Below are positions 14,939 to 35,843 of a stretch of DNA of 64,000 nt, piece by piece (positions within the stretch are counted from its first letter, which is position 1; every line of letters begins with the position of its first letter). This DNA comes from Candidatus Dojkabacteria bacterium. Lineage in GTDB: Bacteria > Patescibacteriota > Dojkabacteria > B142 > OLB20. The notes under the pieces are model-generated. The model made no database searches. It was not told where the DNA came from and saw only the letters and a list, made by a program, of their open reading frames with translations. Location: assembly GCA_035444565.1 (NCBI GenBank), contig DAOMOX010000002.1, positions 8,013 through 72,012 of the forward strand. Direction: 5' to 3'. The position numbers were made by a program, and so were the translations under genes.

Positions 14939-14967
14939 TACAAAATACATTATAATTAGTAAATCAT

Positions 14968-15031: not shown

Positions 15032-15060
15032 TAGAAAATTCATCTAAATTAGTAAAAGAT

Positions 15061-15141
15061 GCCGGGATGGCGAAATGGTAGACGCGCTAGTCTTAGGAAC
15101 TAGTCCCTTCGGGGGTGGAGGTTCGAGTCCTCTTCCCGGCA
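15061..15141 (+). tRNA. tRNA-Leu (anticodon UAG), class II tRNA with a long variable arm
   Basis: Acceptor GCCGGGA/TCCCGGC with discriminator A. D-arm GCG-AAATGGTAGA-CGC. Anticodon stem CTAGT/ACTAG with loop CTTAGGA. Variable arm CCCTTCGGGGG. T-arm GGAGG-TTCGAGT-CCTCT. No encoded CCA. Confidence 0.85.
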
Positions 15142-15249
15142 TACTTAGTAAAACATAATTTTCTCCAAGTTTATTATTTTTAGGTTCTCCCTCTACGCCA
15201 AGGCTTCGAGGGATTAACCAGTTCTACGCCTCATACTTCGGCTAAATCT

Positions 15250-15296: not shown

Positions 15297-18200
15297 CTAT
15301 TGGTAATACTCTAATAATAGTCTATATAATTTTATCGCTAACTCATAGTCATTATAGTCTAACAGGCCTTTTTCTTTAGCCAACTCGATTGTATCAGGTT
15401 CGACTACTCCTTCTTTACCTTGATATTTACCTTTTTTTCTATCATAACCGACATACGCAATTTTTTCTGAACCCGGCAATTTCATTAATGTTTTAGTCTC
15501 ATCTAATAGTGTTGTTAGATAAATTGGTGAATCGTTCTCCAAAGCTTTTGCGAGGAATAGTGCTATAACAGCCTGTTTTGTAGATTTATCAACCCCGTTT
15601 GATGCCTCATCTATAAACACCCATGTATCTGGATTCTCAGCCATTGCTTTGTAAATTCCTACTAATTTCCTTGCTTCCGTTTCGTATTGACTATAATTAT
15701 CACTCCCAATTGACCTGATTATCCTAGCGGCAATAGCTTTTGGTCTTTTCTTAAAATTCACATTTTCTCCTGGACAGTACCCAGATATTATAGTATGTGC
15801 AACCATAGCCGCTTCTGAAATTAGGGATGCTGACTTTCCTGCTTTTTGATTACCAATTTTTACCTGTGCAACTACATTTTCTCCTGAAAATTCTGGCGTT
15901 CCAACAGGGATATATTGATCACCTAATTCTTTTAATAAGTGAATATTGAACGAAGCACTATAACTGAGATGAGTATTTCCCGTGGAATCATAACTTGGTT
16001 TTGTAAATATCTTATTTCCCTTTAAACCGTTTTTAATTGTAAGCGCATAAAGAGCAGAAAGGTTTATACTATTTAGATGATCTATATTGCTAGAAATTCC
16101 TAGAATTGATTTTAGTTTATCTTTACCCAAATGTTCCTCTAAATCTAGAATGACAGGATTAAGATACTCTGAGAACACTTTTTCCGCTCTTTCTTTATCA
16201 TCACTTTCTTTTCTAGTTTTATCTTTGTTAAGCAATATTCTCAATACTTCAGATGAATCGGAAGTAAGTTTTTGGAGATCATCTCCACTTAAATGATTAT
16301 TTAAATTAAAGTTTAGCATCCTAGCTACATTAGGATATTTATCTTTAATTTTATAGTCATATCTTATGGCATCAGCCAACTTCATACTGAGAGAAACAAC
16401 ATTTTCTGGATTCACCAGTAATAAATCTTGTGTTTCAAGGCCAAAATCTTTCATTTGTTCCATAATCTCTTGTTCTCTTACTGAAATCCCAACAAAATCA
16501 TTACCCTCTGGTTTTGTCAAACTCAGTAAATATGAATACAACTCATACTTATCTATATAATCCATACTTCCAATACCCTGTAATGCGCGCTTTGCAAGTT
16601 TTACTCCATCGAGTCTTTCTGAAAAGTGTACAAGCCTATCTCTCAAAATATGCGAATCTTCTTGCAAAAAATCATCAATTCTTTTATGAATTTCTTCTTC
16701 GAAAAATTCGGGACCACTCGAAGATTGCTCTTTCAGGAATTCTGTAAATGCACTGGAAATCTCATTAGTATTAATTGATGAGCTATCTCGAAACATTGAA
16801 TCCATCATTATTGTGTATATATCTTTTAACTGTAGCTCATCAATTGTCTTCTCATCAAAGACTTCACTGGTAGGACTATACTCGACTTCCTGCAGTGGAG
16901 GGACAATTTCTTCGGTCCCAAACATGATTTGTTGTTTAAGTTCTTCAATCATTCTTGCAATATCTTCTGACACTCTACTACCTATTCTTTGATAAGTTTC
17001 AGGGCCAAAAGAGGAACTCATCCCCTCACGAGCTTCATGTGAGATTGGTATGATATTGACATGGTGCAATCCTGATTCTCCTAACAGATAGTCAAGTGCA
17101 CCTAATTCTTCAACATGATGCGAGGTCACAACGGTAGTTAATCCTGCTCTCTTTCTTTTCAGTAACTGAATATATTCAATCACTGAGGCTGCCAAATCAG
17201 TACCACCAGATAATAACTCGTCTGCGAAAAGAGTATCGGTATTTATTACTTCTACAAGTTCACTTATACTCTGATCTGCTAAGCTTTGGTTTGGATCTGG
17301 TACTTCGAAACCTACTCTATATATTCCATCCGTACTATTTCTTGTTGCGGAAAAAGGTCGGCTCACTTTAGCATTTGGAACCGATCTATTTCCTGGGAAA
17401 AGACTTTCGAACAATATCCTTAAAGCATAGGTTTTTCCCGAACCGGTAGGGCCACCTATTACAGTTGATGTTCCTTTCCCAAAGGCCATATTTAATAACC
17501 CACCTATTTGATAATTGGGAAGACAATTTCGTCTTGGAGTATTGGATAGTACACGACCTTCTAAGATTTCATATTCATCAGTACTTGGTTGAACATAAAC
17601 ACCAAGACTTTCTCTAAACCTTGGAATCCAATACATTCCTGCGAGCACTCCTACAAATTTATCTAGTCTTATATTATTGCTTGCAGAATCTAAGATGTTT
17701 TCTGGATTGTTAGTAGTACCCTTTAAGAAACCTAAAAGAGCACTTAACTCAGCACTTGCAGGATTTATGAATTCCTTAATAGTAACTCTTCCTGATTCTT
17801 GTTCAATACTTGAAATTTCCTCAAAGAGAATATCCAACTTTTCAAGAGCAGTAAGTGTTTGTTCATAACCTCCTTTTTCTTTGTATGTTGTGTAGTTATC
17901 GGCAGAGTAAAAACTTGGGATGAGCCTTTTAGCTCCAAAAACAGCATAATTCTCCAAAAGTTCTTTAGTTTCGGGGTCTGCTTTAGAAATAAAGTCTATT
18001 ATCACCTGAAAATCTTGATCGGTTAGATTAGCATAGTTTAAGAAATCACACAGATCTATTAATACCGATACTTCATATCTACCTTTAAATCCACTTTCTA
18101 AAGTGCTGCCCTCTACTCTATTTTCGGTGATGAAAGATTGAATTTCCCCTAAATATGAACTAGCAGAGTAAGTATTTTCTCCATCAACTGGGAATTTTCT

Positions 18201-19541
18201 AGTTTTAAAAATATCAACTGGGTAACTATCTTCTTCCGTGATTTCAACCAATGACTTTGACCAATAAGAAAACTCAAGTTTTGCCGCTTCTTTTAATTTT
18301 AACAATTTCTCATTTTCTTCCAGTTTCATTTCTACTACATCATGTACTACGACATCTGGAGCATCAGTCAAATTGTCTATACTTCTTATAATTGTATTAT
18401 TCACAGAGAATTTTGATTCGGCAGCCTTAATTAATCTCTCCATCTCCGCAGTACTATAAATATCTTTTTCTGAGAATACTTCAGCATCTGATGCGAAATC
18501 ACCTACAGCCCTAATGAAATTATTTTTATCACGAACTACATCTCTGTTCTTTAAATGTCTTCCTTCATCATAAGATAAATCACTATATAAAATACTTGTA
18601 GTATCGATATATCCTGAATCCAATGCTTCTTTAAAAAGTTTTAACACAGCTAAATGATTTCCTGGTTTAAGTGGAAAGCTGGTTGTATTTCCAGTATCTA
18701 ACCATGATTCTACAATTTTCGATTTACTTACTTCATCAAGTGAACTTACACTTTCAATCCATTTATCAGAAAAGTATGCAGCTGCATCGGGATTTAATTT
18801 TTTTAAAGTTGACTGAAAACCGAAATTTTCTGTAATTTCAAGTTCTGTAACAACAGGTATGAAGGCAAAAAACCTACTTTCAGTGAGATTGTCTATTTGT
18901 GAAATTCTATTTGCAACATCAAAATAAAAATCTATATATTTTTCAGAATTCCCAAAGTGCTTAAATCCACTCTGCATAAGCTCTACGACAAAATTAGCAT
19001 AACTATCTTTATCATCTTGTGATTCGAGTTTGTTTTTTACCCCATCATAGCCTTCTATTAGTTGAGTTATCAGAGTTTGAAATTTTGTTTCATCTTCTGG
19101 AATAAATTCAACAGCAGAAATTACCCTTTTCGTATCAGAGATAAATGAATTCAAACCATATGATCCACCTATGTTGTTAAAATAGGAAGCAGATTGATTC
19201 CCTCTTTCCTTTCTCCAAAAAGGATTTACAAATGATGGAAGATCTTCGTTACTTAAATCTAGTATACTAAGCAATCCATGCTCCCCCAAAATCGTATTTG
19301 CTAAACTTCTCTTTTCATCCACACCAAGGGCCTCAATTGCACCAATCCCTTTATGCCCAATATTAGCAATAATTTGGAGTCTCTCAGGAGCCGAGTATTT
19401 TTTTGGATTTGTTAATAACTCGAGTTGTTCACCAATTGTCCTCCGCGGAGTAACATTATTTATGTAGGTTACTCTATCAGGAGCTACAGGAGGTCCTTGG
19501 AGTATGGTTTGCATCCCTGTAAGATTTGATTCTGTACCCAT
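15297..19541 (-). CDS. Giant (1414 aa) cytoplasmic protein with two tandem MutS-domain-V-like ABC ATPase modules (module 1 canonical, module 2 lacking the catalytic His) and no mismatch-binding domain
   Basis: Module 1 (aa about 690-830, nt about 17470-17050): GGPTGSGKTYALRILF, LFADELLSGGTDLAASVIEYI, TTVVTSHHVEEL, collinear with the MutS domain V in this window. Module 2 (aa about 1225-1350, nt about 15870-15490): GNQKAGKSASLISEAAMVAHTIISGYCPGEN, RIIRSIGSDNY...WVFIDEASNGVDKSTKQAVIALFLAKALE, TTLLDET. Confidence 0.7.
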   Translation of the reverse strand: MGTESNLTGMQTILQGPPVAPDRVTYINNVTPRRTIGEQLELLTNPKKYSAPERLQIIANIGHKGIGAIEALGVDEKRSLANTILGEHGLLSILDLSNEDLPSFVNPFWRKERGNQSASYFNNIGGSYGLNSFISDTKRVISAVEFIPEDETKFQTLITQLIEGYDGVKNKLESQDDKDSYANFVVELMQSGFKHFGNSEKYIDFYFDVANRISQIDNLTESRFFAFIPVVTELEITENFGFQSTLKKLNPDAAAYFSDKWIESVSSLDEVSKSKIVESWLDTGNTTSFPLKPGNHLAVLKLFKEALDSGYIDTTSILYSDLSYDEGRHLKNRDVVRDKNNFIRAVGDFASDAEVFSEKDIYSTAEMERLIKAAESKFSVNNTIIRSIDNLTDAPDVVVHDVVEMKLEENEKLLKLKEAAKLEFSYWSKSLVEITEEDSYPVDIFKTRKFPVDGENTYSASSYLGEIQSFITENRVEGSTLESGFKGRYEVSVLIDLCDFLNYANLTDQDFQVIIDFISKADPETKELLENYAVFGAKRLIPSFYSADNYTTYKEKGGYEQTLTALEKLDILFEEISSIEQESGRVTIKEFINPASAELSALLGFLKGTTNNPENILDSASNNIRLDKFVGVLAGMYWIPRFRESLGVYVQPSTDEYEILEGRVLSNTPRRNCLPNYQIGGLLNMAFGKGTSTVIGGPTGSGKTYALRILFESLFPGNRSVPNAKVSRPFSATRNSTDGIYRVGFEVPDPNQSLADQSISELVEVINTDTLFADELLSGGTDLAASVIEYIQLLKRKRAGLTTVVTSHHVEELGALDYLLGESGLHHVNIIPISHEAREGMSSSFGPETYQRIGSRVSEDIARMIEELKQQIMFGTEEIVPPLQEVEYSPTSEVFDEKTIDELQLKDIYTIMMDSMFRDSSSINTNEISSAFTEFLKEQSSSGPEFFEEEIHKRIDDFLQEDSHILRDRLVHFSERLDGVKLAKRALQGIGSMDYIDKYELYSYLLSLTKPEGNDFVGISVREQEIMEQMKDFGLETQDLLLVNPENVVSLSMKLADAIRYDYKIKDKYPNVARMLNFNLNNHLSGDDLQKLTSDSSEVLRILLNKDKTRKESDDKERAEKVFSEYLNPVILDLEEHLGKDKLKSILGISSNIDHLNSINLSALYALTIKNGLKGNKIFTKPSYDSTGNTHLSYSASFNIHLLKELGDQYIPVGTPEFSGENVVAQVKIGNQKAGKSASLISEAAMVAHTIISGYCPGENVNFKKRPKAIAARIIRSIGSDNYSQYETEARKLVGIYKAMAENPDTWVFIDEASNGVDKSTKQAVIALFLAKALENDSPIYLTTLLDETKTLMKLPGSEKIAYVGYDRKKGKYQGKEGVVEPDTIELAKEKGLLDYNDYELAIKLYRLLLEYYQ

Positions 19542-19590
19542 AGTTTATGAAACCAAAAATTAATTAGTTATTGCAAACCACAAAGTTAAC

Positions 19591-22500
19591 TTATTTTATA
19601 GAAGCGTACATTATTTCCAATATGTAATACTGTGCAGTAGTCTCTGTGATTTGTTTTGGTAAGTCCAATTTACCAAGTCTTGATCTTAATTTTATAGTTA
19701 TTTTATTTAAAAGTTGCTGATATTCATTATTAGTAAGTTGTGCAGTTATAATCTTTGCTGCATTTGAAATTGCTGTAATTGTATTCTTTCTGACAGTATC
19801 TGCATTCGGGTCTTGATTATTCATAATCTCATTAATAATTAAGTCTAGTTCTCGTTTTAAACCAGTCCTATCTGTTTGTAATTCATTTTTAATTACATTT
19901 CTCACTAAATCTAATATCTCTTCGTTTGGCAATGTTATTTCATTAGTTGTTAAATATGCTCGTAAATTTTCGGTATTGGAATCAGTATCAATTACAGTTT
20001 CGGTTCCCATGATGGGAAGAATAGGATTGTCGACGGGTAAATCTTCTACATCCTCAGCTTCTCTTCCCACAAGTTCTTTATCTTGAGGAGATGAGGCCAG
20101 TTCTATTAACCTTTTCTCCGCGTCTGTTCTATTCTCTTCAACTAAACTAACCTTCACCACCCAGCCTTCAATCCCTCCCAAATTTTCTTCCTCTACTCGT
20201 AATTGGTATTTCCCTTCGGCTACTCCCTCATTAATTCTATCTGCAATTTTTCTTGTGGTATCACCGTCTTCTGATACATCGATGAAATCATCGACAACCT
20301 CATTAGTAAGAGTTACATATCCCATCTTCACTAGATCAGGCATGCGGTTTGCCAGATCACCAGTATCATCTATTCTTTCAATTTTATTAGATTTGAAAAC
20401 AAATTTAGAATCATCGGTTTCATCAACTGTATATACCAACCGTCCTCTTATCAAATCCAGTACTATTTCTTCGTCAGAAATTTCTGAACCTACAACAGCA
20501 TTAATCTCTTCTCTTTTGTTTTTGATAATTTCGAGTAAATCAGTTTTTTCTACAAGCCATTTCTCTTCTGATCTCTCATCTGTTACAGGAGAAAAACGGA
20601 CTTCTCTTCGACCTGAAACTATCTCATCTTTAGCATTCTCATCAAGTTGACCTCCAACCAGTTCTACTAATTCACCCAGTCTTCTCATATTGTAGTGTAA
20701 TAGTGCTCTTTTAGTAGCTTCTGCATTTTGGAATGAAAGCTCTACAGAATCTCCACTTTCACTTGTTGATTCGGTCTCAGTAAAGGGTTCTTCCTTCATT
20801 ATAGTTTCGGCTTGTTCTACGGGAATCACCAATAATTCATTAAATTTCTCTGTTAATCTCTCCTTTCCGGCAACCTTCTCTCTATCCACTTTTAATTTGC
20901 CTTTTATTTGCATAACATCTTCCGTACTAGTATCAGCGTCTTTTATAATCAATCCGGCATATTCTAATAGTTCTAAGACCTCAGCTTCGGGAAGGTTTTC
21001 ATAATCTATATTCCCTGATTCGGAAGCATCATCACTTAACCACAAAGCAGTTCTTCTATTTATTTCATTCAATACTATTCTGGTAATATTATCTGAGCCT
21101 CTAGTATCTTTTTCAATATTTCTCAATGTGTAGAGTACATTGCTTGGAAGTCTTCTGCTGAATTCATTGGAAGTAAGTCCCATATCGGGATCGTTATATT
21201 TCCCGCGTATTTCAATATAGGTATCATACACAGTAGCTCCAGGAGTTATGTCTAGGATTGTGTATTCTGCGCCTTCACTTTCAACATCAACTGCTGCTTC
21301 CGATATTAAAGGTTCTGCGACAAGGTCATTTCTATCACTTTGGTCAACCTCGGCATCAACAACTACAAATTCCCAAGCACTAATCCCATCAGGCATTTCA
21401 GGGATAGTTCTAGTCTGTAATGTAACTTCGTTATTTATTATTTTTCTAACTAAGACTTCTACAAATTTTTCTCTGAAATCATCAGGATTACTATCGGGAT
21501 TTCTTTCTGATAGATCAGATATTACTGATTCGGGTATATCCGAGGATAAAACATCATTATTTATCACTGTTTGAAGCAAACCTTGCACGTCATTTTCATT
21601 TAGTTCATCGCTAAATAAATTTTTATAACCTGCCAAAAGAGAATTTACGTATTCATCTCTATTATCAAAAGTAGGATTTCCATCAATAGCATTACTATAT
21701 ATGTAACTTCTTGAAGCTAGTAATGCTTCTTGTTCTGGTTCTAAACTAATAATTTTACTAATATCTTTATCCCGTATCCGTATATCTCCATTTAAAATCC
21801 AGGCATCATAGCCACTATATTGACTGTAATAATATGCAACTTTGCTGTTTTCTCCTATTATAGGTTGATTTAATGCTAATTCTAACTGAGAACGTATATC
21901 ATCTTTTTCCTTATATTCCCTAAATTTATCTGAAACAATAAATGTTGAATCACCAAGAACAACATCTGTTAGATCTAATAATGGCTCTTCTTCTGGAGTA
22001 GAACTAAAATTCTCAACAAGGACGTACTCATATATTCCTAGTCCTTCTAAACCAGGTATTTCTCTGGTGGTGAAAGTGTAATAATCACCCACTCTATCTA
22101 TTTCTTCAATTATAGTCTGACCAACAATTCTTCGTAACTCGTTAAGGTCTGTGATTTTATTAATACCTTTCTTCAATTTTAAAGTTTCAATAATTCCTTG
22201 TGGTAGTTCCGGTGATAATAGTCTTCCTAATATTTCTGGAATTTCATTTGTATTTTTAACGTCATTCTCTATTCTTCTAAGAATGTCCTCTCTGTCAACA
22301 ACTTCGTTCTGAGATATGTCTTGTGTATCAAATGATATTGAATACCTAATGTTTCTGTCGTAACTACTCTCTCCACTTCCTAATAAGTTTCTCGAAAAAA
22401 GAGTTCTTATCTGACCACGATTAAGATCTAGTGATGAATTATCTTTATTTGATAAAACTACCTGTTCGGAAGGATAAAATATGTGCACGTACTGAGGTGT

Positions 22501-25500
22501 TTCAAGATATATTCTTTCATCAGATAATATAAGTGGTGACCCGAGTGCCCATGATACACGTTCGAACAAATCACTATTTATAATTGCGTTCTTAATCTCA
22601 TTGTGTTGATCTTCATTAATACCCAAACCTTCTCTAAATTCTTCATCTCTAATTTTCTCTTGTCTCCGTCTATAAAGTGCGAAACCCCCAAATGCTGCTG
22701 TTAGTATTCCGAGAGTGGCGACACTTCCTATGATAAGTGGTTTTTTCATATCTTCTGGTATACCAGCATCCTCCAACATTGCATCGGTATCGACACCTTC
22801 TCCTGGAACAGGTTCCAATGGAGCTGTCGTTGGTTCTGGGGTTACAAATGGTTCGATTTCGGAAGTTGCGGTTTCTTTAACCTCTTCTGTGGGTTCTGGT
22901 GTAGCTGTAAATGTTGTCTCAGCAGTAGGTGACTGCTCTGTGGGAATAGATGTTGCGGTAACTGAAGCAGTCTCCTCTGGGGTTGTTACTGTTGTTGCAG
23001 TTAATTCTTCTTGGGATTGTTTTGCCTCAGCAGTCGGAGCCTGTGTTGTGTTTGTAGCTGTAGTCTGAGCAGTTGCTGAAGGAGTGACAGATGCAGTGGT
23101 TACTTCAACACGTGATTCAGATCTTGGCAATTGGTTTTGACCTTCTACATTATCTTTAATAAAATCTTTTACTGATTGTGGCAAATCTAGAACTGAGTAA
23201 GTCCCTTTTGATATTTGATTACCGTTACTTGTCCCAGCTACACTATATACTACTACTTCATCACCATAATTACTTCCGTCTGGCTTCATCAGCTTTACAA
23301 CTACTTCAGGCGAAGGACTATTATCTCTATTTACTATAATAAAACTCTCTTCAGTAACTACAAAATCATCACCTTCTTTGTAAATTACCGAACCATACTG
23401 GTCTGAAATCCTAGGATCCTCTAATGATTCGAAATCAAAAGCTGCTGTTGCAGTTGGTGCTGAAATTGTTGCTGTAGCTGTTTGAGTTAAGGTTGGTTCT
23501 GCAGTTGAAATTGGTGTTGCTTCTGGTTCAGCAGTGCTAGTTGCAGTAGGTTCGGGGGTTGATGTTACGGGAGGTGTTCCCTGAACATCTGAGTCTGATA
23601 GATTATTAAAAGTGTTGATGGTCGCTTGATCTACTTGGATATCTAATTTAGGATTTTCGTCAGTATCTTTTATACCCAATAAGTTAAATATATTTATATT
23701 TTTTTCATTTAAAATTTCTTGAAGTCTATTCAACATTCTGGGGTTTGTATATATTGCTACTACTTCTTCATAGGATTGTACTGACGTACTTGTGATAGGA
23801 TTCTCATCACCTTCATCTGTAGTATATAATATTCTCTCACCAAGTAAACTTTGTATGGTGCTATGTAATGTCATTAGAGCCACTGCAGGATCATCAGTCT
23901 CAACTACAGTGCCCTCAAAATTAAGAACTCGAATCAGATAGCCACTATCTTCTAATCCATCCCATCTTCCTCCATTTTCTCGTTCAATTACATCAAGTAA
24001 TGCATGTTGGGTAAGTTCTGAAAACGGTGCTAATCTTCCTGTTCGGAACTGCTCAGGTATATCAGAGTCATATCTATCTTCAATTCCAAGTTCTTTAAGA
24101 GCTTCGTATAAATGCTCAAACTTATAATCACCTTCTGGGAATCTTTCTATCGCAGAAAGTATAAGCCCGTTGACTAATAATTGAGAAATTTCCTCTCTAA
24201 TTATATCCATTCCCTCACCTGCGATTGTTTGGCCATCATTTACATCCTCATTAAAGTTCTGGAAGATACTGATTGTGTGAAATTTAAAACCATCCTCTGT
24301 GTAATTCGGGGGAGTTGTGGCAACTGAGCTTCTTTGTTCAATTATTTCTCGGTACTCATCGCCGATTGAGAAATTAATATTATTTGGAACAAAATCCTGA
24401 TTTCCGTTTAGATGAATAGAGTAGCCCATTTTACTTGCTATTTGTTCAACAAGATCATAGCTCACATTAAATTTTGTTTGCTGACCATTAATAGTTAAGT
24501 TTATTTCAATAGGATTTTCCTTATCTAATCTCTGGAATTCTTTAGGTTCTGGAGGAAATTCCTCCATTAATTTTTGTGCTTCTGTGGGGGTTGCACTCGC
24601 ATCTACTGTCGGAGCAAGGGTAGGTTCTTCTTCAACCGGCTCGGGAGTTGATACATTTCTAGTCGCTTCAGCTACTCGATCAAATATTCCTTTTATCAAT
24701 TCAATGTAATCCCCTTCTGGAACATCTGGGAATGCAGTGATAAATTCTTCTCTTGTTAAACTCTCGAAATTTTTATCATCTACTCTCTGATAAGAATTGT
24801 TTTCATACTTTTCAATGACTACATATGCCTCACTACCTTCACTAGGTCTTACAGTTAGTCGATATTCGGGATCTATATCATTGTCTGTATTTAAATAGAC
24901 ATAAATTCCATTATCTCCCTTTCCACTTACTTCTTTCATCATCCATTGACCTTTTTGATCACTGCCATTACCCAATGAATCTCCACCTTCGAAATTATCG
25001 AGTATATTTTTTCTATATTCCTCTTCATCCACGAAGTTGATCTCGGCTTCTTGAGCTTCGATTGTTCCTTCCGGAACAGGAGTAGGTCCTTCGTCACCAG
25101 TCTCTGGAGTGGCTGTTATAGTTCCTTCCTCTACCGCAGGTTCACTCGTAGCTGTAGGTGTGGTACTAGGTGGTGGAGACGTTGGAGTTGGTTCCGTACT
25201 GTTTGTTGTATCTCCCGTAGGTTCAGGTGTCGGATTTGTTACGGTCTCGGCATTATCACCTGTCACTTGTAGACTATCTGGAAGGTACTCCGCAATCTTT
25301 TGATTAGCCAATTCAACCATATCTCCTACAGAACCTGGCCTTTCTTCCTCATTGATTCTAAATTCAAGAATTCTTGTATCGGGAGGGATATTGTCTCCAG
25401 AAATTATTTCATAGTCAGAATTTACAGCTGTACTAATAAACAGTTGACCTTCAACATCTATTAATGCAACACCTTGATTCTTGATTTGTGTAGCGACATC

Positions 25501-28500
25501 ATCGCCAATTTCATTTAATGTGACGTATTTATCATTTGATGTTAAGAATTCATCCAAATCGATTTTTCCTTCTTCTATCAGTTTATCTGCTAAAGCCTTT
25601 AATCCCTCAATATCTTCAGGAATATCACCCGCATCGATTCCGTAGAAATGAGGTCCCCCGTGAAGGCTTCCTGTTATTCTCCCCGAGGAATCAGCATTAA
25701 TTTCGAGCGTGTAGTATGTTCTCTGTTCCTCTACACCTTCATTATTTATTTCGTTAAATGTTTGAGACCTCAATGCAACACCATGTTCAATTAGTGACTC
25801 TTCTGCCAATTTGTTTGATTGAGCAACTTCTTCAGATGTTGAATTTTCAGATCCACCAAAAATCGGAATGTTTGTCGTAACTACATCAGACCCTACTGTG
25901 AATTCTGTGTCAGGTATCTCCACAGTTGGAGAAACGATATCTTCAGCAGAATCGCTTTCATCTTCTACTCCATCTTCAACTTGTTCGTCGACAGTTTCCT
26001 CTGTAGTAACTCCTTCTCCGGTTGATTCATCTTGAGCAATTGGTCCAACTGCCCTCAATCTCATGTCTATACCAATATCTTCTGTCAATTCCACTAAAGA
26101 AAGCTCACTTACAATACTTTGAGGTCCAGCCATAACTGTGAATTCCGTTTGTTCTCCTATTACTGATCTGGTTTGATTGGAGCTTGTAGTTACTATTACG
26201 AATTCTCGTTCCTCTCCATCAACCTGAAGAGTGATAATAGGTAGTTCCCCTTCGTCTAATTCATTTAAGTAAGTTTGTATTTCTGATTGTAATGTTTGAG
26301 GCAAATCTGACAGACTTGTTGGTGCTGTTGTCTGAGTACCTGAAGTTCCTAACGTTGTAGAGTTGTCAACAACAGTAGACATTGAGACTGGTGAAATGTT
26401 TGTTCCAGAAATCGGCTCAAGTTCAGGTACGGTATCAGCGTCTATTGTGCGACCAAGAGTTATATCCACGGATGCTTGAGCATCTTTATAAATTTCATCG
26501 ATATGTTCTTGAGTCATCTTCCCATCTGAGAGATCTTCAGTTTGTTCAGCACTAAGCTCGACTAGGAAAATACGATTATGCGTACCAAGATTTGAATCAC
26601 CCGGAATAGTAACCAATACAAATTTGTTTTCTACAAAAGTAGCGTTTTCTCCCTCCTGTTCTACAACATTTAATATTCTAATACCTGAACCTGCTCCAGA
26701 ATCATTCAAAATTTCACCATCAACAACTCCGTTTAAAGATATAGAATATCCGCTATTTAAAACACCGGGTATAGAATCTTCTACTAAATTACCACCCTCA
26801 TTAATTATATATGGAGTTAAATCTTTGATATTACTTTCGGAGATGACGAGTTCAGAGAGCATACTATGTGGTTTCAAGACTAGTACATCTTGAGGATTTG
26901 GGTACCCAGAATTGTTATAGAATCTCTCGACCTGAGTTTCATCGCGGCTAATGGAGGCTACATCAAAATCTTCATTAGGTGAATTATGAGTATATACAAT
27001 ATTACCCAACATTGTTGTAAATGTCTGTGGCTCTCCAATTATGAGCTGAACACTTTGACCCGTACTACTTGGTAGGGTTAGTAACCCATCATTAATAAGC
27101 TCTTTTAGCTGATCCCCTGTTAGAGCTGATTGATAATGATTTAAGACATCATTCCATGTACTGAATGTAATTGAATTATTTGAGCTTAAGATATTATCTG
27201 TTGCATCTGCGACTGCATTGATTTGTTCATTAGTTAGACCTATCTCTTGTAACTGCTCAATACCCTCAGGAGATGGCATTTGATTGAGGATTTCATCTAC
27301 ATCTAAAGTTACTGGTGTATTTGAGGGAAACCTTGATAATTCAATTTCTTGTGTAAGTAAACCATCTTGAACAACCTTTTGTCCATTTTCTTCGGTGATA
27401 TCTGATTCATTTATCAGTCTCCACTGGTTATTCTCAAGAACAACCAATCCATATACAATACTACCCTCAGCTGTTGTATTATCCCCATCGATATCTACTT
27501 TTAAACTTAGCGTTCCATAAGGCAAACCATCTGTTTCATTGAAATATCCTTCAGATGGAATTTCTCCTGTAATAACTCTTCCTGTTTCAGGTAAGTTATC
27601 AAAAGGGAACGCTGTTTCACCATTTGATAAAACGACACTAGTTCCAATTTCATCTACATTTTCAATCTGAGTTTTAAAGTTATCACTATTAACTATATTA
27701 TGTAGTTCTGTTTTTAATTCATCAACGGGTCTTCCAATCCATTCATCACCTTCTAAAAATTGCGATGCATAAATAATATTGTCAGGAGCATTTCTCAAAT
27801 CTCCATCATATATAGCATTCTCTCCGTCGACATCAGGAACGACAGCATAGACAACCTGTACGACAAATTCATCCTGCGATGTTCGCATTGTTCTTATGAA
27901 CAAATCATCATCAGATGGCAATCTTTCTAAGTCTATATCGCTTACAAATAAATCTATCACTTTTGCGTGTTCAGAAGTACCTAAAATGACAGGTGAATGA
28001 TCTACATGATTATTTAATTCGTCAGGAACTGGGGCAAATATATTATCAACAACTTGATAGAATAGGATATCTTTTTCCAGATTTGCTCCCGCGATAGGGG
28101 TGTCATCAATTTTCCCACCAACTAATAATAAATCGTTTTCTTGATATTGGCTATGATTGACGTCACTAGGAATATAATTTGTTCGTACATTTAGTTCTCC
28201 TGTATCTGTTAAGCTATATGATCGCGCTGCAATAGTAATACTCTCTTCTTCTGGATGATTATTTAACCAATCCTTTACATCTCCATAAGTCCATCCAGCA
28301 TATTTGGATACTTCGCTCAGTCTATGTTCTAACTCTTCTTCTGGATTTTCTGTGTCAAGTACATTTATATCTCCAACAATTTGTTCAACTTGTTTATATA
28401 CAATTTCGGGCTCCACATCATGATCCACATCAAATCCAAAAGCAAGGCTTCCAGCATGTGTAGTTGCCGATTCAGGTGATTCCAGTTTATAAGTACCCGT

Positions 28501-30771
28501 AGCAGGGTCAAAGTGCAAAGCTCCGTAATATGTCTCAGAACCATCAGGATTCTCAACGACAGCCACTCCTCCATTTAACGGTTCGTTTAGCTCTGCTACT
28601 ACACCATCTTCACCCCAGATTTCGTGACCTTCTCTTACTACCTCAGCGACTGCCTCCCCAATACCATTTCCAGGTGTAACTTCTCCGATGCCGACGGATT
28701 GACTGTCACTGCCAGCTGGTTCATAAAGAACTTGATCAAGTATGGCAGATGTGGGTTGTTCGAAGACAGCTGCCATCTGAACTGCTATAGATGCATCTAT
28801 TCCAAATTCTTCGTGAAGTAATTTTTGTATATTACCTTCATGTTTATCAATCATCTCTGGTGTGATGCCATCTAAGAGATTGATTTGATCATCTGTAAGG
28901 GTTCTTATGGTATCCACATTTACTATTTGTCGTTCGTGTAATTCAGTTCGCTCCTCAGAGTCTGCACCCTGTATATTATGCAAAGCTTTTTGTATATCAT
29001 CAATTTTATTGCTTAACTCAACCTGTTCCAATTCGCTGATTGGCTTTTGCCAATGTTCGACGGATGAATCCACATGCTCAGCGGGTGGAGCTTCTTCTAT
29101 CACCCTACTACCTGTAGTTTCTGGTGTTTGATTATCAATATTGTTTTCTAGAGAAGTCTCCGTTAATACTGCTTCATCAGTTTGTTTAGAATCTTCTCGA
29201 TATACCATTTGCTCCACACCACCATTGTCAGCTCTATGGAATTCACCTTTCTCAACAGCATCAGCCATTGCTTGATACCTTTCGTAATCATTATGGCTAT
29301 CGACCTTATCTTGTGCAATTCTTGCTAAACTCTCCAAAGCGTCTTCGCGAACTTGAGATGGTGGTGTTTGAAGATGGTCAGCCTGGTCGACAACATCATT
29401 AGTCTCGTTTGAATCCATCCCATAACCGGAAGTTGCTGCTAGATATTCATCGAAAAAGTCATCTGAATCATTATCTCTTAAATCGTATAATTCTCCTGAT
29501 ACTACGGCTCCTGCTGGCATAAATATACTTGCCACAACTCCAGTAAGCCTGAGGGTATTTAGTGATAATTGAATTACCTTTCTTTGCTTTGGGGTCAATC
29601 TATCTAATAATCCTGCATCTGGCTCTTTATTACTAAGTAGAATTTCTGCAATTCCTTCATCCTCAAAACCTCGCACTTCTAGTATTGACGCCTGTTCAGG
29701 ATTGAGTTTCCCTTGCGAAATAAGCTCTTGTTCTTGTTGGTATTTATTCTGTAGTAATCTCCTAGCTAAAAATTCCAATTCAGTCAATGTGAGGTTTGTT
29801 CCATTATCTGCGTTGATTTGATCCAAAGCAGCTTTAGCAATTTTCTTTGTACCAGAATCAAATCCCATATTAGCGAATCTATATGCCATCTCAACTGACA
29901 TGTTCACACCTTGATCATTGGTCCAAATTACTGTACTTTCTGCTGAATGAGTAGGTAAATATGTCTTACTCTGAAGATTTTTATAACCTTTTGCCACTGT
30001 TTCGATAGAAGTAATTGAAGGTGCTGTTATATCAGTAATGTCTTCTCTTTTCTTAAGTGCGATCGTCGTAATTTCGTCAATACTCGTATTTGGGTTTAAC
30101 ACGTGTTCTGTAGTAATTAATTTGGATGCTAATTCTGATTCGTGAAGTAGTGCTACAAGCTCTCTCGGTAGGACTTTATTTAATTTGCCGTCCGTTGTGA
30201 GATTAACATATTTACTTAATACATCATTTAAACTTGCAAGGGATGCTCCATAATTTTCACCTAAAACATCAATTGACTCGCCTAAATACCTCTGAATAGT
30301 CTCAAAAACTATAAGCTGCCCATCTGCACTTAGATTTCCTTCTTTACTAAATAACTCCTTGTCACTGATTTCTAGTTCATTTAGTAGTCTATCTAGATAA
30401 TAAGCAAATGCTGCATCTTCAGTTTCAGATGTTGTATCTAATTCTGGAAGAATTTCATATATTTTATCTGCTCTCTGCACAATAGACAGAGAAGATGTCA
30501 CCTCCTTCCTTTTGGTTTTACCACCTCCTAATATTTTGAGACCTCCGATTTTAACGACTTCTGTTCTGGTATATCTCTCTCCTAACAAAACGTTATTCCG
30601 GAATTCCACGTCTGGCTTATAATCACCACTATCTAACAATAGAGGATTTTCCGTTCTGTTACCTAACAAATCTTGTGCTGCCATTGTTGCAAATACTTCT
30701 GTCATAACTCGCACATCAGGCGGGATATTTGTTGGTTTAGTGACTTCTACCACTGATCTCTCAATTCCCAT
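19591..30771 (-). CDS. Giant (3726 aa) bitopic membrane protein: N-terminal region of about 2600 aa with Thr/Pro-rich low-complexity stalks, one TM helix with an RRRQEK stop-transfer, and an acidic C-terminal domain of about 1100 aa
   Basis: Single hydrophobic segment PLIIGSVATLGILTAAFGGFALYRRRQEK (aa about 2600), preceded by a PT/TA-rich stalk (…TPEPTTAPLEPVPGEG…). Additional PT tracts sit at aa about 1390 and about 2240. No recognisable catalytic motifs and no N-terminal signal peptide. The intact 11.2-kb ORF is co-directional and contiguous with the MutS-like ATPase gene. Confidence 0.6.
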   Translation of the reverse strand: MGIERSVVEVTKPTNIPPDVRVMTEVFATMAAQDLLGNRTENPLLLDSGDYKPDVEFRNNVLLGERYTRTEVVKIGGLKILGGGKTKRKEVTSSLSIVQRADKIYEILPELDTTSETEDAAFAYYLDRLLNELEISDKELFSKEGNLSADGQLIVFETIQRYLGESIDVLGENYGASLASLNDVLSKYVNLTTDGKLNKVLPRELVALLHESELASKLITTEHVLNPNTSIDEITTIALKKREDITDITAPSITSIETVAKGYKNLQSKTYLPTHSAESTVIWTNDQGVNMSVEMAYRFANMGFDSGTKKIAKAALDQINADNGTNLTLTELEFLARRLLQNKYQQEQELISQGKLNPEQASILEVRGFEDEGIAEILLSNKEPDAGLLDRLTPKQRKVIQLSLNTLRLTGVVASIFMPAGAVVSGELYDLRDNDSDDFFDEYLAATSGYGMDSNETNDVVDQADHLQTPPSQVREDALESLARIAQDKVDSHNDYERYQAMADAVEKGEFHRADNGGVEQMVYREDSKQTDEAVLTETSLENNIDNQTPETTGSRVIEEAPPAEHVDSSVEHWQKPISELEQVELSNKIDDIQKALHNIQGADSEERTELHERQIVNVDTIRTLTDDQINLLDGITPEMIDKHEGNIQKLLHEEFGIDASIAVQMAAVFEQPTSAILDQVLYEPAGSDSQSVGIGEVTPGNGIGEAVAEVVREGHEIWGEDGVVAELNEPLNGGVAVVENPDGSETYYGALHFDPATGTYKLESPESATTHAGSLAFGFDVDHDVEPEIVYKQVEQIVGDINVLDTENPEEELEHRLSEVSKYAGWTYGDVKDWLNNHPEEESITIAARSYSLTDTGELNVRTNYIPSDVNHSQYQENDLLLVGGKIDDTPIAGANLEKDILFYQVVDNIFAPVPDELNNHVDHSPVILGTSEHAKVIDLFVSDIDLERLPSDDDLFIRTMRTSQDEFVVQVVYAVVPDVDGENAIYDGDLRNAPDNIIYASQFLEGDEWIGRPVDELKTELHNIVNSDNFKTQIENVDEIGTSVVLSNGETAFPFDNLPETGRVITGEIPSEGYFNETDGLPYGTLSLKVDIDGDNTTAEGSIVYGLVVLENNQWRLINESDITEENGQKVVQDGLLTQEIELSRFPSNTPVTLDVDEILNQMPSPEGIEQLQEIGLTNEQINAVADATDNILSSNNSITFSTWNDVLNHYQSALTGDQLKELINDGLLTLPSSTGQSVQLIIGEPQTFTTMLGNIVYTHNSPNEDFDVASISRDETQVERFYNNSGYPNPQDVLVLKPHSMLSELVISESNIKDLTPYIINEGGNLVEDSIPGVLNSGYSISLNGVVDGEILNDSGAGSGIRILNVVEQEGENATFVENKFVLVTIPGDSNLGTHNRIFLVELSAEQTEDLSDGKMTQEHIDEIYKDAQASVDITLGRTIDADTVPELEPISGTNISPVSMSTVVDNSTTLGTSGTQTTAPTSLSDLPQTLQSEIQTYLNELDEGELPIITLQVDGEEREFVIVTTSSNQTRSVIGEQTEFTVMAGPQSIVSELSLVELTEDIGIDMRLRAVGPIAQDESTGEGVTTEETVDEQVEDGVEDESDSAEDIVSPTVEIPDTEFTVGSDVVTTNIPIFGGSENSTSEEVAQSNKLAEESLIEHGVALRSQTFNEINNEGVEEQRTYYTLEINADSSGRITGSLHGGPHFYGIDAGDIPEDIEGLKALADKLIEEGKIDLDEFLTSNDKYVTLNEIGDDVATQIKNQGVALIDVEGQLFISTAVNSDYEIISGDNIPPDTRILEFRINEEERPGSVGDMVELANQKIAEYLPDSLQVTGDNAETVTNPTPEPTGDTTNSTEPTPTSPPPSTTPTATSEPAVEEGTITATPETGDEGPTPVPEGTIEAQEAEINFVDEEEYRKNILDNFEGGDSLGNGSDQKGQWMMKEVSGKGDNGIYVYLNTDNDIDPEYRLTVRPSEGSEAYVVIEKYENNSYQRVDDKNFESLTREEFITAFPDVPEGDYIELIKGIFDRVAEATRNVSTPEPVEEEPTLAPTVDASATPTEAQKLMEEFPPEPKEFQRLDKENPIEINLTINGQQTKFNVSYDLVEQIASKMGYSIHLNGNQDFVPNNINFSIGDEYREIIEQRSSVATTPPNYTEDGFKFHTISIFQNFNEDVNDGQTIAGEGMDIIREEISQLLVNGLILSAIERFPEGDYKFEHLYEALKELGIEDRYDSDIPEQFRTGRLAPFSELTQHALLDVIERENGGRWDGLEDSGYLIRVLNFEGTVVETDDPAVALMTLHSTIQSLLGERILYTTDEGDENPITSTSVQSYEEVVAIYTNPRMLNRLQEILNEKNINIFNLLGIKDTDENPKLDIQVDQATINTFNNLSDSDVQGTPPVTSTPEPTATSTAEPEATPISTAEPTLTQTATATISAPTATAAFDFESLEDPRISDQYGSVIYKEGDDFVVTEESFIIVNRDNSPSPEVVVKLMKPDGSNYGDEVVVYSVAGTSNGNQISKGTYSVLDLPQSVKDFIKDNVEGQNQLPRSESRVEVTTASVTPSATAQTTATNTTQAPTAEAKQSQEELTATTVTTPEETASVTATSIPTEQSPTAETTFTATPEPTEEVKETATSEIEPFVTPEPTTAPLEPVPGEGVDTDAMLEDAGIPEDMKKPLIIGSVATLGILTAAFGGFALYRRRQEKIRDEEFREGLGINEDQHNEIKNAIINSDLFERVSWALGSPLILSDERIYLETPQYVHIFYPSEQVVLSNKDNSSLDLNRGQIRTLFSRNLLGSGESSYDRNIRYSISFDTQDISQNEVVDREDILRRIENDVKNTNEIPEILGRLLSPELPQGIIETLKLKKGINKITDLNELRRIVGQTIIEEIDRVGDYYTFTTREIPGLEGLGIYEYVLVENFSSTPEEEPLLDLTDVVLGDSTFIVSDKFREYKEKDDIRSQLELALNQPIIGENSKVAYYYSQYSGYDAWILNGDIRIRDKDISKIISLEPEQEALLASRSYIYSNAIDGNPTFDNRDEYVNSLLAGYKNLFSDELNENDVQGLLQTVINNDVLSSDIPESVISDLSERNPDSNPDDFREKFVEVLVRKIINNEVTLQTRTIPEMPDGISAWEFVVVDAEVDQSDRNDLVAEPLISEAAVDVESEGAEYTILDITPGATVYDTYIEIRGKYNDPDMGLTSNEFSRRLPSNVLYTLRNIEKDTRGSDNITRIVLNEINRRTALWLSDDASESGNIDYENLPEAEVLELLEYAGLIIKDADTSTEDVMQIKGKLKVDREKVAGKERLTEKFNELLVIPVEQAETIMKEEPFTETESTSESGDSVELSFQNAEATKRALLHYNMRRLGELVELVGGQLDENAKDEIVSGRREVRFSPVTDERSEEKWLVEKTDLLEIIKNKREEINAVVGSEISDEEIVLDLIRGRLVYTVDETDDSKFVFKSNKIERIDDTGDLANRMPDLVKMGYVTLTNEVVDDFIDVSEDGDTTRKIADRINEGVAEGKYQLRVEEENLGGIEGWVVKVSLVEENRTDAEKRLIELASSPQDKELVGREAEDVEDLPVDNPILPIMGTETVIDTDSNTENLRAYLTTNEITLPNEEILDLVRNVIKNELQTDRTGLKRELDLIINEIMNNQDPNADTVRKNTITAISNAAKIITAQLTNNEYQQLLNKITIKLRSRLGKLDLPKQITETTAQYYILEIMYASIK

Positions 30772-33479: not shown

Positions 33480-34388
33480 ATGGGTAGTTTATGCAACACA
33501 TACTTTGAAAATGGGGATGTCTCTCTGAAAGACTATTATTCTGATAATATCTATACCTGGTGCACAAACTGCGGAAATTACGGGATAGCAGCTGCCACAA
33601 AGAGAGCATTGGTTGCAGAAAACATTGTACCGAAAGATACATTTATGTGTTTCGATATTGGTTGTAATGGAAACGGCTCTGACAAAATTGGAGGATATCG
33701 ACTCCATGGACTTCATGGACGTGTAATTCCAGTCGCTACAGGAGCAGCTTTAGCAAATAGAAATATGACTGTTATAGCTTCTGGAGGTGATGGGGCGACT
33801 TTAAGTGAAGGAATTGGACATTTAGTTCACGCAATACGCTCAAACTATAATATTACATTCCTCATGCACAATAATTGCAATTACGGACTCACAACTGGAC
33901 AAGCTTCTGCTTCGACAAGACCTGGAGTACCTATGAACTCATCACCCGATGGTACGACTGCGGACACAATGAACTTTATGAACTTCGTATTAAGTCTAGG
34001 GGCATCATTTGCTGCTAGAACATTTTCTGGTAATGTAAATCAAATGACGGAAGTGATTCGCGCAGGTATAAAACACAAAGGTTTTACAGTAGTCGAGATT
34101 CTTCAAAATTGTCCCACTTATAATAAAGACACAACTCATGAATGGTACCAGGATAGAGTTTACGATACTATTGAGCTTAATGATTTTGATAACACAAACC
34201 TCGACTCAGCATTAAGTATTTCCAGAGATATGTCTGAAAGAATCGCGACTGGCATTTTATATGTAAATCCGAACTCAGTTCCATTTGACCAACGCCTGGA
34301 AAATCGTAAAGGTTATGCAACCGAACTCGTTGACGAAGTGAAAAGTTACAATGGAGTAAGTCAGGAACTTTTCAGTAGATTTATTTAG
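33480..34388 (+). CDS. 2-oxoacid:ferredoxin oxidoreductase beta subunit (TPP-binding, KorB/PorB-like)
   Basis: TWCTNCGNYG, IASGGDGATLSEGIGHLVHAIRSNYNITFLMHNNCNYGLTTGQAS (TPP-binding GDG...NN motif). Confidence 0.8.
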   Translation: MGSLCNTYFENGDVSLKDYYSDNIYTWCTNCGNYGIAAATKRALVAENIVPKDTFMCFDIGCNGNGSDKIGGYRLHGLHGRVIPVATGAALANRNMTVIASGGDGATLSEGIGHLVHAIRSNYNITFLMHNNCNYGLTTGQASASTRPGVPMNSSPDGTTADTMNFMNFVLSLGASFAARTFSGNVNQMTEVIRAGIKHKGFTVVEILQNCPTYNKDTTHEWYQDRVYDTIELNDFDNTNLDSALSISRDMSERIATGILYVNPNSVPFDQRLENRKGYATELVDEVKSYNGVSQELFSRFI

Positions 34389-34403
34389 CCTCAAGTCATT
34401 CCG

Positions 34404-34840
34404 CGTCTCTCCGCGGTTTAACCGCGGAGTCCCGTCTTTCCGTGCTTCAAGCAGGGAATCCCGTTAATTCTCTCAAACGCAATTATTGTGAAAACGGGTT
34501 CCCGTGGTTAAACCACGGGAAGACCTTGGGTTGGCGTTTTCGTGGTTGAACCACGGAATGACCACGGGAAGACTTCGAGTATTTCATTCATCTCAGCGTC
34601 TCTCCGTGGTTTACCCACGGAGTCCCGTCTTACCGTTCTTCATGCAAGGAGTCGCGTTTTTCCCTTCTTCATGCACGGAATCCCGTCAATCTATGCATTA
34701 ACTGATGAGTCCCGTATACTTTCCTTACCGCACCTACAGTAAAATCGAGATTCCGTGGTCAAGCCACGGAATGACCTCGAATATTTCGTTCTCCCCTGCG
34801 TCTCTCCGCTGTCACTCCGTGGTTTAACCACGGAGTCTCA
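34404..34840. repeat. Array of GC-rich palindromic hairpin repeats (6 copies of the TCCGTGGTTTAACCACGGA family) embedded in 2-3 copies of longer composite direct repeats (about 65 and about 110 bp)
   Basis: Perfect or near-perfect 19-21-bp palindromes at 34411-34429, 34502-34520, 34540-34559, 34604-34622, 34752-34772 and 34817-34835. The flanking motif GCGTCTCTCCG recurs three times and the motif CCACGGAATGACC...CGA..TATTTC twice. They lie in the convergent intergenic region between korB and miaA, and the region is far more GC-rich than its surroundings. Confidence 0.7.
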
Positions 34841-34847
34841 TCATTCA

Positions 34848-35843
34848 CTAAGTGCGTAGTACCCCCTCAAAACGTACTTTCATTAAGTTATACCCCCTCC
34901 TATCATTCTCAAACCATGTAATCTGCCTAGAGGCGTAATTTCTATGAGCTTGCTTCATCTTTGTTTTGGCTTCATCGAGAGTTATTTCGCCCTCTAAATA
35001 TTCAACCACTTCTTTGTATCCCATTCCCTGCATCGATTTACATTCTTTAAACCCTTTTCTCAACAGCTCTTTGACTTCCTCTACTAAGCCTTCGTTAAAC
35101 ATTTCCTCAACACGGTTATTGATCCTCTCGTATAAAAAGTCTCTATCAAACTTCGGATAATACATAATATGTGGAATCATTTTATTACTTACTTCCTTAG
35201 AATTCCCCATTTGTGCTAGTTCAATTCTACGAATCAATCTTCGTTTATTAAATCTATCACTCTCATTTAATCCTAATGCGGCTTTAGGTGAGATTTGGTA
35301 TAGATGGTCATATAATTGCTCTACTGAAAACCTTGATAAGTCACCTCTTAATATGTTATCTTTTTCAACTTTTGCTAGTGAGTAGTTTTTTAGAATTGAG
35401 TCAATATAGAGTCCAGTTCCACCAACTAATATTGGGATTTTTCCATCCTCTCTTATTTTATTTATTAACTCTTTTGTTAAGAATTGGAAATCTGCAACTG
35501 AAAAATCCTCATCGGGTTCAATGATATCAAACATGTATCCAACAACACCTGAATTTTCAATCTCATAAGCATTTATTTCGCAAACATTTTTACTTTCACC
35601 CTTTTCAACCTCATTCTCTGAATATTCTTTTATCAATTTATGGTTATTTAACATTTTAATTCCTAAATCTCTGAATCTCTTAACTTCCCCCTTGTTAGTC
35701 CCAATATCCATACCTCTGTATACCTGCATTGAGTCTGCATTGATAATCACTCCATTAATCTTTTTTGCCAAATCAATAGCATACTGAGTCTTTCCACTAG
35801 CAGTTGGTCCCGCCACTACTATTAATTCATCAAAACTGTTCAT
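34848..35843 (-). CDS. miaA: tRNA dimethylallyltransferase MiaA
   Basis: IVVAGPTASGKTQYAIDLAKKINGVIINADSMQVYRGMDIGTNK (P-loop and DSMQVY motif). 331 aa, with an insertion. Confidence 0.9.
   Translation of the reverse strand: MNSFDELIVVAGPTASGKTQYAIDLAKKINGVIINADSMQVYRGMDIGTNKGEVKRFRDLGIKMLNNHKLIKEYSENEVEKGESKNVCEINAYEIENSGVVGYMFDIIEPDEDFSVADFQFLTKELINKIREDGKIPILVGGTGLYIDSILKNYSLAKVEKDNILRGDLSRFSVEQLYDHLYQISPKAALGLNESDRFNKRRLIRRIELAQMGNSKEVSNKMIPHIMYYPKFDRDFLYERINNRVEEMFNEGLVEEVKELLRKGFKECKSMQGMGYKEVVEYLEGEITLDEAKTKMKQAHRNYASRQITWFENDRRGYNLMKVRFEGVLRT

Follow-up and report, generated by a model that had tools for sequence, protein, structure and literature searches.

What kind of element is a cluster of GC-rich hairpins that lies between two convergent genes of a bacterium with a small genome? 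The question is raised by a contig of Candidatus Dojkabacteria, a lineage of the Candidate Phyla Radiation (CPR)/Patescibacteria. CPR bacteria have very small, streamlined genomes, which in the case of episymbionts amount to about 1 Mb. A stretch of 64,000 nucleotides of contig DAOMOX010000002.1 was analyzed, which is called the window throughout. Positions 34395-34839 of the window are occupied by an intergenic hairpin-repeat array between korB on the plus strand and miaA on the minus strand. The array contains 10 full and 3 truncated copies of an oriented unit of 29 nt, which are found in both orientations. There is good support for classifying it as a dispersed array of hairpin repeats. Beyond this classification, we consider it probable that the array is a non-coding mosaic of REP-like 29-nt hairpin repeats, of the type of the Neisseria Ssn-related motif (SRM) and the NIME arrays, and that it is maintained at the level of the DNA with the participation of a trans-acting enzyme.

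The original prediction had reported six GC-rich palindromes within about 440 bp, with a GC content well above background, and both observations were reproduced. A 17-mer core, CCGTGGTTTAACCACGG, was found with up to three mismatches at six sites (34411, 34502, 34540, 34604, 34753 and 34817), and no other site of the 64 kb contained it. This corresponds to 12 strand-matches versus 0.04 expected, and none of 100 shuffles scored as high. The GC content is 0.50-0.52 in the array versus about 0.33 in its surroundings. A scan of the window for perfect GC-rich hairpins recovered five of the six array palindromes, and the hairpins that it found elsewhere were unrelated. The nested direct repeats that had also been described are real: the repeat search of the array yielded a 29-nt period with seven forward copies and a 45-nt linker motif that is present twice. 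A threefold occurrence of 'GCGTCTCTCCG...GGAGTCCCGTC' was not found: full copies are present only at 34403 and 34596, and the third is a truncated head (34798-34810). Four degenerate tandem units, at 34434, 34627, 34656 and 34685, were absent from the earlier description.

Each unit of 29 nt is composed of a GTC head, the 5'-arm (A/T)(T/C)(T/C)CCGYG(G/C), a TTTAA loop, the 3'-arm (C/G)CRCGG(A/G)(A/G)(T/A), and a C tail. The stem is GC-rich and has 9-10 bp, and the loop has 3-5 nt. Seven units lie on the plus strand and three on the minus strand, and there are three truncated half units. Neighbouring units either abut, with a period of 29 nt, or are spaced by one of two linkers that are present in two copies each, L1 between unit tails and L2 between unit heads. 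The array starts with the truncated 5' half of a plus-strand unit, GTCATTCCGC (34395-34404), and the canonical copy, unit 1 (GTCTCTCCGCGGTTTAACCGCGGAGTCCC, 34405-34433, plus strand), which is abutted by unit 2 (34434-34462, plus strand) with one stem mismatch. The first copy of the AT-rich linker L1 (34463-34495) lies inside an inverted doublet and is conserved across loci and genomes in the doublet alignment. It leads to two inverted units on the minus strand, unit 3 (GTCTTCCCGTGGTTTAACCACGGGAACCC, 34496-34524, nhmmer E=1.8e-8) and unit 4 (GTCATTCCGTGGTTCAACCACGAAAACGC, 34534-34562, nhmmer E=1.8e-6), the tail of which is degenerate. The head of unit 4 is abutted by a truncated half unit, also on the minus strand (GTCTTCCCGTG, 34563-34573). 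The first copy of L2 (TTCGAGTATTTCATTCATCTCAGC, 34574-34597) is situated between two unit heads, has 80% identity to the second copy, and is also present in a relative (L031). It is followed by four tandem units on the plus strand, namely unit 5 (GTCTCTCCGTGGTTTACCCACGGAGTCCC, 34598-34626), which was recovered by both the repeat search and nhmmer, the degenerate copies unit 6 (34627-34655, still with a period of 29) and unit 7 (34656-34684), and unit 8 (34685-34713), the most decayed one, with 61% identity to unit 1. The stems of the inner tandem copies (34627-34713) have decayed. The second L1 copy, placed by the doublet alignment (34714-34746), the inverted unit 9 on the minus strand (GTCATTCCGTGGCTTGACCACGGAATCTC, 34747-34775, nhmmer E=5.7e-8), and the second L2 copy, a direct repeat of the first (CTCGAATATTTCGTTCTCCCCTGC, 34776-34799), come next. 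The array ends with a truncated plus-strand half unit (GTCTCTCCGCT, 34800-34810) that abuts the head of unit 10 (GTCACTCCGTGGTTTAACCACGGAGTCTC, 34811-34839, plus strand, nhmmer E=1.1e-8). Unit 10 contains the core with 0 mismatches, and 8 nt separate its end from the miaA stop codon.

The hairpins are supported by covariation, which had been proposed as a check. The analysis comprised 24 distinct units and 10 stem pairs, i.e. 240 cells, 89% of which were paired. Four of the 10 stem pairs (5-25, 6-24, 10-20 and 12-18) showed double compensatory changes, exchanging U-A for C-G or G-C for C-G with nearly no unpaired cells. Double changes were present in 32 cells versus 11 in shuffles, none of 500 shuffles reached the observed value, and all slid controls were at most 50% paired. 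G-U pairs were found in a single one of the 240 cells. The paucity of G-U pairs together with the presence of units on both strands is in line with a hairpin that is required at the DNA level on either strand, rather than with an RNA. Folded as single-stranded DNA (ssDNA), the whole array has a predicted free energy (dG) of -93 kcal/mol (z -8). For an inverted doublet folded as RNA, a hairpin of about 35 bp was predicted, with a dG of -49 kcal/mol and a z of -6.6. In relatives, the loops of some units bear a mini-hairpin insert of about 23 nt, CCTGCCCTGCCGAAAGGGAGGG, which lengthens the stem rather than breaking the hairpin; this insert was searched for in the window and is absent.

Next, the occurrence of the unit at other sites was analyzed, and the answer differed between the window and its relatives. 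A hidden Markov model (HMM) of the unit, applied to the rest of the window and about 10 kb beyond each end, yielded no further copy. At least four other intergenic loci were found in relatives, with one TCCGNGGTTTANCCNCGGAGTC scan of species-representative genomes and one metagenome scan. The dispersal that had been suggested was thus confirmed for the lineage, but not for the surroundings of the array itself. The genome of bacterium DTUPAT2 has units at two loci, namely in the syntenic spacer between miaA and korB (L015) and beside a zincin-like gene (L011). The metagenome scan retrieved four activated-sludge contigs with arrays (L016-L019). One array lies between the co-directional genes rmlB and rmlD (L016) and another between divergent genes (L018). 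A further contig (L017) has arrays at two sites, one of which runs on into L019 and corresponds to the L011 locus (NUDIX/zincin). Together with the korB-miaA spacer, five distinct intergenic loci of the Dojkabacteria lineage contain units, and a transposase gene was not seen beside any of them. Several short-read contigs break off inside the arrays, as is expected of repeated DNA. The unit pattern had no match in viral contigs.

Across loci and genomes, the units recur in a common module. In this module, which measures about 95-115 nt in total, the A unit (GTCWTYCC...GGRAWCCCGT) is connected by a conserved linker, about 29 nt long, to a B unit in inverted orientation (ACGGGACTCC...GGAGAGAC). 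Judged from its predicted fold, this module is a REPIN-like doublet. The window array consists of two such doublets that are joined by L2, and in which the B units are amplified twofold and fourfold.

The korB-miaA spacer is occupied by units in every relative examined, but it has been repeatedly rebuilt. Six alleles of the spacer were found, the korB and miaA flanks of which have 78-99% nucleotide identity. The shortest allele, of 77 nt (L034/L035), contains one unit, which forms a single hairpin common to both genes. Spacers of about 110 nt (L015) and 128 nt (L020-L024) contain two and about 2.5 units, respectively, and one doublet plus one unit make up a spacer of 190 nt (L031-L033). The allele of 430 nt (L025/L026) corresponds to the window array minus one unit, and the full array is present in the 459-nt spacers of the window and of L027/L028. 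L025 and L026, with 98% identity to the window, lack exactly one 29-nt unit at about 34625-34653 (491 versus 462 nt). In all six alleles, a forward unit or hairpin is found 6-16 nt past the korB stop codon. In the window, the ancestral first unit appears to have been split into the 5' half GTCATTCCGC and the remaining array. Compared with four of the other alleles (L034, L015, L020 and L031), this half unit looks like a remnant of the unit that is found 6 nt past the korB stop in all relatives. The half units of the window and of L017, L018 and L031 stop after CCGYG or a variant thereof (CCGC, CCGCT or CCGCC), and a GTC head follows immediately.

These structures suggest two routes by which the arrays may have grown. 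On the first, 29-nt units would be gained or lost by slippage or unequal exchange. On the second, new units would join or insert at the top of a 5' half-stem, leaving behind a half unit and a fresh GTC head. We infer such joining at the stem top from the junctions; identical junctions would also arise if the template were switched at stalled hairpins.

Which known repeat does the unit resemble most? On sequence comparison, the closest described form is the Neisseria NTS/dRS3 SRM in NIME arrays, a class that had not been named in the original prediction, and the layout is equivalent to that of BIMEs and REPIN doublets. The Neisseria NTS, CGTCATTCCCGCGMAVGCGGGAATCYRG, contains dRS3, and a degenerate SRM has also been defined (Chenal et al. 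2025, PMC11893778). SsnA, a GIY-YIG nuclease of 94 aa, binds and cuts NTS only as ssDNA; cleavage depends on the three bases that precede the palindrome and binding on the C directly after it (PMC11893778). The loop is dispensable for Ssn, and its identity and extensions are without effect (PMC11893778). The Dojkabacteria units share with NTS and SRM the oriented hairpin of about 28-30 nt, the (C)GTC(A/T) head, the outer stem ATTCC...GGAAT or variants of it, and the C after the palindrome, and they are hairpin-forming inverted repeats in the range of 20-50 nt that is typical of the SRM/NTS class. In the unit alignment, T2 and C3 do not vary, and the conservation of G1 and C27 is at least 90%. 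These asymmetrically conserved bases, of which G1 T2 C3 precede the palindrome and C27 follows it, are the positions that govern cleavage and binding of NTS. The loop is free in both cases, and the mini-hairpin inserts tolerated in the loops of relatives are consistent with the irrelevance of the loop for Ssn. The A units of Dojkabacteria have the sequence (G)GTCATTCCGYGG-N5-CCRCGGAATC. The SRM pattern as published, HGTCWYN(0-2)YYVSBRHN(0-5)WNVSBRGN(0-2)RNCYNB, has an exact match at unit 1 plus one adjacent base at either end (34404-34434), where 0.03 matches are expected per window, and 1-2 copies in each of L011, L016, L017 and L018 match it as well. NIME arrays are made up of dRS3 hairpins with intervening spacers, and those at syntenic positions are not constant in number or length (PMC1797815). 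The Dojkabacteria arrays resemble them as intergenic hairpin arrays with spacers of lower GC content that differ in number and length at syntenic sites. The differences from NTS and SRM are the host, a CPR bacterium, the stem CCGYGG/CCRCGG with a 5-nt TTTAA loop, and the low copy density in the Dojkabacteria source strain.

A related repeat was found in another phylum. In the metagenome-assembled genome (MAG) Dino_bin54 of the Alphaproteobacteria, a group in which SRMs are known, a repeat, GTCACTCCGCGGTTTATCCGCGGAGTC, is dispersed (L005, L007, L008, L009, L012 and L014). It differs little from the Dojkabacteria unit of L015, with about 25 of 27 nt of the core in common. It is paired with an inverted partner, the heads pointing inward, and the doublets match the SRM pattern. 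The repeat motif is thus common to different phyla. The alphaproteobacterial doublet had no match in the plasmid database.

A REP/BIME-like nature of the array had been among the options of the original prediction, and the units in both orientations with conserved linkers, the further intergenic loci in relatives, the copy-number differences between strains, and the doublets that fold as long hairpins all speak for it. Enterobacterial REPs and BIMEs and the REPINs of Pseudomonas are reportedly mobilized by RAYTs, which are IS200/IS605-like Y1 transposases. The array shares with REPs that short, GC-rich, imperfect palindromes are exclusively intergenic and are dispersed in the lineage, with BIME-2 the alternating orientation of units with few conserved linkers, and with REPINs the inverted doublets that fold as long hairpins. 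The copy number changes by whole units, as in REPs and BIMEs. It differs from REPs in the conserved head, which is GTC(A/T) and not GTAG, in far fewer copies per unit of sequence, and in the truncated half units, to which new heads are attached at the top of the stem. A link to a RAYT or IS200-like transposase, which had also been considered, was not found: the Pfam domain Y1_Tnp is absent from the 27 open reading frames (ORFs) of the window and the 10 ORFs of relatives that were scanned.

In the mechanism that we favour, the hairpin would be selected or maintained at the DNA level, as ssDNA, and would be recognized in trans by an enzyme with specificity for hairpins, the gene of which would lie elsewhere in the genome. 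A small GIY-YIG ssDNA nuclease of the Ssn type would be the leading candidate for this enzyme, with a HUH transposase of the RAYT type as the alternative. The hairpins next to the korB and miaA stop codons would probably double as 3'-end structures of the convergent transcripts, and such a secondary role for both genes is plausible.

Several observations weigh against this interpretation. Neither an Ssn-type GIY-YIG gene nor a Y1/RAYT gene was found in the window, in about 20 kb beyond its ends, or at the loci of relatives. For GIY-YIG, a motif scan was combined with an HMM of 120 small GIY-YIG proteins, which was UPF0213-like and did not sample the Ssn family. The copy density is low, with one cluster per about 84-94 kb in the source strain, and this is far below the numbers of classical REPs or NTS. 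The strict SRM pattern is matched by one of the 10 window units; unit 2 is one mismatch off and most others are 3-5 off, giving a range of 1-5 for the nine units versus mostly 4-7 for background GTC sites. The other window units miss the pattern mainly because their CCGTGG/CCACGG stems have T or A at the S positions. The spacing ATTCCC-N8-GGGAAT of NIME/dRS3 is not present, i.e. the arms are similar, but the inner stem and the spacing differ. Neither definable element boundaries nor a target-site duplication were found. Lastly, the hairpin after korB has been retained over about 20% nucleotide divergence, which equally fits a selected cis-regulatory role.

With respect to the enzyme, a search with a consensus of small GIY-YIG proteins yielded 7246 sequences, many of them from Patescibacteria; among the best 120 of 7246, none was named Dojkabacteria. 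The retrieved proteins are UPF0213-like, and NCBIfam yielded no model with the name Ssn for them. No SRM hairpins were found beside two small GIY-YIG (UPF0213-like) genes of CPR bacteria. One GIY-YIG gene of this kind, encoding 109 aa in a Patescibacteria MAG (L047, 4990-5400), is flanked by inverted repeats that are GC-rich and about 24 nt long. Located at the duplicated 5' end of an epimerase gene, it looks like a small selfish insertion.

Could the array have a function solely for its two neighbouring genes? It would then be an amplified bidirectional terminator or a 3'-end mRNA stabilizer of korB and miaA, immobile and without a dedicated enzyme. We regard this as unlikely. The forward hairpin that each of the six alleles has kept 6-16 nt downstream of the korB stop, the minimal allele of 77 nt with its single hairpin common to korB and miaA, the distance of 8 nt between unit 10 and the miaA stop, and the high predicted stability of the hairpins would be explained by it. 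However, the hairpins are without T-tracts, and the terminator scan yielded 1 site versus 0.9 expected. A textbook bidirectional intrinsic terminator of different design, AAAAGGGTGAAC-loop-GTTCACCCTTTT, is present at 57482-57508 of the window, which shows that the genome uses ordinary terminators, unlike the repeat hairpins. Furthermore, the same units and linkers are found between the co-directional rmlB and rmlD and between divergent genes in relatives. The conservation of the linkers over unrelated loci argues for a composite element that was copied, and not for independent terminators. Accordingly, of the bidirectional terminator array originally proposed, the hairpin conserved after korB has remained, and the proposal as a whole is weakly supported.

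A reading as coding sequence was tried and rejected: two ORFs of about 65 aa in the array have no Pfam match, and the length difference between strains, 29 nt, is not divisible by 3.

A second alternative attributes the half units to the element itself. GTC-headed units of a self-targeting hairpin element would join an existing 5' half-stem after CCGYG, by means of a hairpin-specific ssDNA enzyme that is neither a canonical Ssn nor a RAYT. We consider this unlikely. If it were true, it would mean a new mechanism of mobilization or genome dynamics in CPR bacteria, and the arrays might act on incoming or replicating ssDNA, e.g. by modulating the recombination of DNA that has been taken up. In Neisseria, NTS modulates the recombination of taken-up DNA, and Dojkabacteria are DNA-scavenging episymbionts.

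It is quite improbable that the array is a MITE. As such, it would have arisen by deletion from a conventional DDE insertion sequence, would be non-autonomous, and would have the hairpin units as its terminal inverted repeats. The A-linker-B doublet of about 95-115 nt does have inverted ends, is present at several loci with a conserved interior, and is predicted to form a long hairpin. In these respects it resembles MITEs such as Correia/CREE, RUP and ERIC, which are composites of about 100 nt with inverted ends and are dispersed intergenically. In contrast to MITEs, the basic module is a 29-nt hairpin, and half units as well as single and tandem 29-nt units are frequent, which is atypical of cut-and-paste MITEs. 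No recognizable target-site duplication was seen, and the outer flanks of the doublet (CCYNGAG and GCGGAGG) are themselves conserved. A parent insertion sequence or a transposase was not found among the scanned ORFs of the window and of relatives.

An array of small-RNA genes, or one long structured non-coding RNA, is very unlikely. The strong predicted structure, the compensatory changes in the stems, and the loop insertions that extend the hairpin instead of breaking it could be taken as evidence for an RNA. However, Rfam yielded nothing relevant, neither at the gathering threshold nor at E up to 10, apart from weak noise from miRNA models. The units occupy both strands of one array, G-U pairs are nearly lacking (1 in 240 cells), and promoter-like sites in the array are not enriched but at chance level. 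In addition, strains with 98% identity differ by a 29-nt indel, and the spacer is fully remodelled among relatives. The structured small-RNA array that the original prediction had offered as an option was thus not borne out.

A degenerate or orphan CRISPR array is effectively refuted, in agreement with the original prediction: the length of the unit, 29 nt, and its internal hairpin are as in typical CRISPR repeats, but the units abut or share two recurring linkers instead of being separated by unique spacers, they occur in both orientations, and no cas domains were found in the scanned ORFs of the window.

For the preferred interpretation, a REP-like array of SRM/NIME-type repeats maintained at the DNA level, some consequences can be named. 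A fast-changing, dispersed family of hairpin repeats in Dojkabacteria means that such elements persist in episymbiont genomes of about 1 Mb. The arrays explain why metagenome contigs break at these sites, and the korB-miaA array offers a marker for strain typing. The host range of the recently defined SRM class would be extended and, if a cognate nuclease exists, it would represent a new specificity in a family that has been proposed as an ssDNA tool. In the literature searched, no REP-like, NTS-like, RAYT or palindromic repeats were reported from CPR bacteria or Dojkabacteria, nor was the repeat sequence itself.

The two flanking genes were characterized by their domains, and the convergent arrangement of korB and miaA was verified from Pfam domains and strands. 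Upstream of the array, korB (33480-34388, plus strand) encodes the beta subunit of a 2-oxoacid:ferredoxin oxidoreductase (POR/KOR) with the Pfam domains TPP_enzyme_C and PFO_beta_C, and its stop codon TAG is located at 34386-34388. Like other proteins of the window, it is identical to a protein deposited under Candidatus Dojkabacteria. Downstream, miaA (34848-35843, minus strand) encodes a tRNA dimethylallyltransferase, as indicated by the Pfam domain IPPT and the name given by NCBI.

Additional features were observed outside of the array. Within 14873-15142 of the window, an intact tRNA-Leu gene (15060-15142) is directly preceded by two truncated sequences similar to the 5' part of tRNA-Leu (at about 14875-14935 and at 14968-15030, with a period of 93 nt). 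They may be integration remnants or a tRNA-derived repeat. In a strain with 98% identity, about 7-8 kb past the left end of the window, an intergenic tRNA cluster (L041, 17996-18763) contains repeated GACCTACTCGGTG tRNA fragments, and behind two of these lies a GC-rich hairpin that belongs to another family (CCCGCCCT...AGGGCGGG). An ORF of 1434 aa for ribonucleotide reductase (RNR), located within 2733-10671, matches the RNR domains twice and has a TSCPD domain in addition; it may contain an intein or represent a fusion. It adjoins a second RNR gene (592 aa) and nrdR. Two giant ORFs on the minus strand, of 1414 aa and 3726 aa, take up 15 kb of the window (15297-30771). In the region 54446-59040, a sortase gene (54446-55168) adjoins two ORFs, at 55314-57464 and at 57592-59040, which probably encode sortase-anchored surface proteins; tandem repeats of 24 nt fill both ORFs and are translated into stretches rich in Pro, Thr and Lys.

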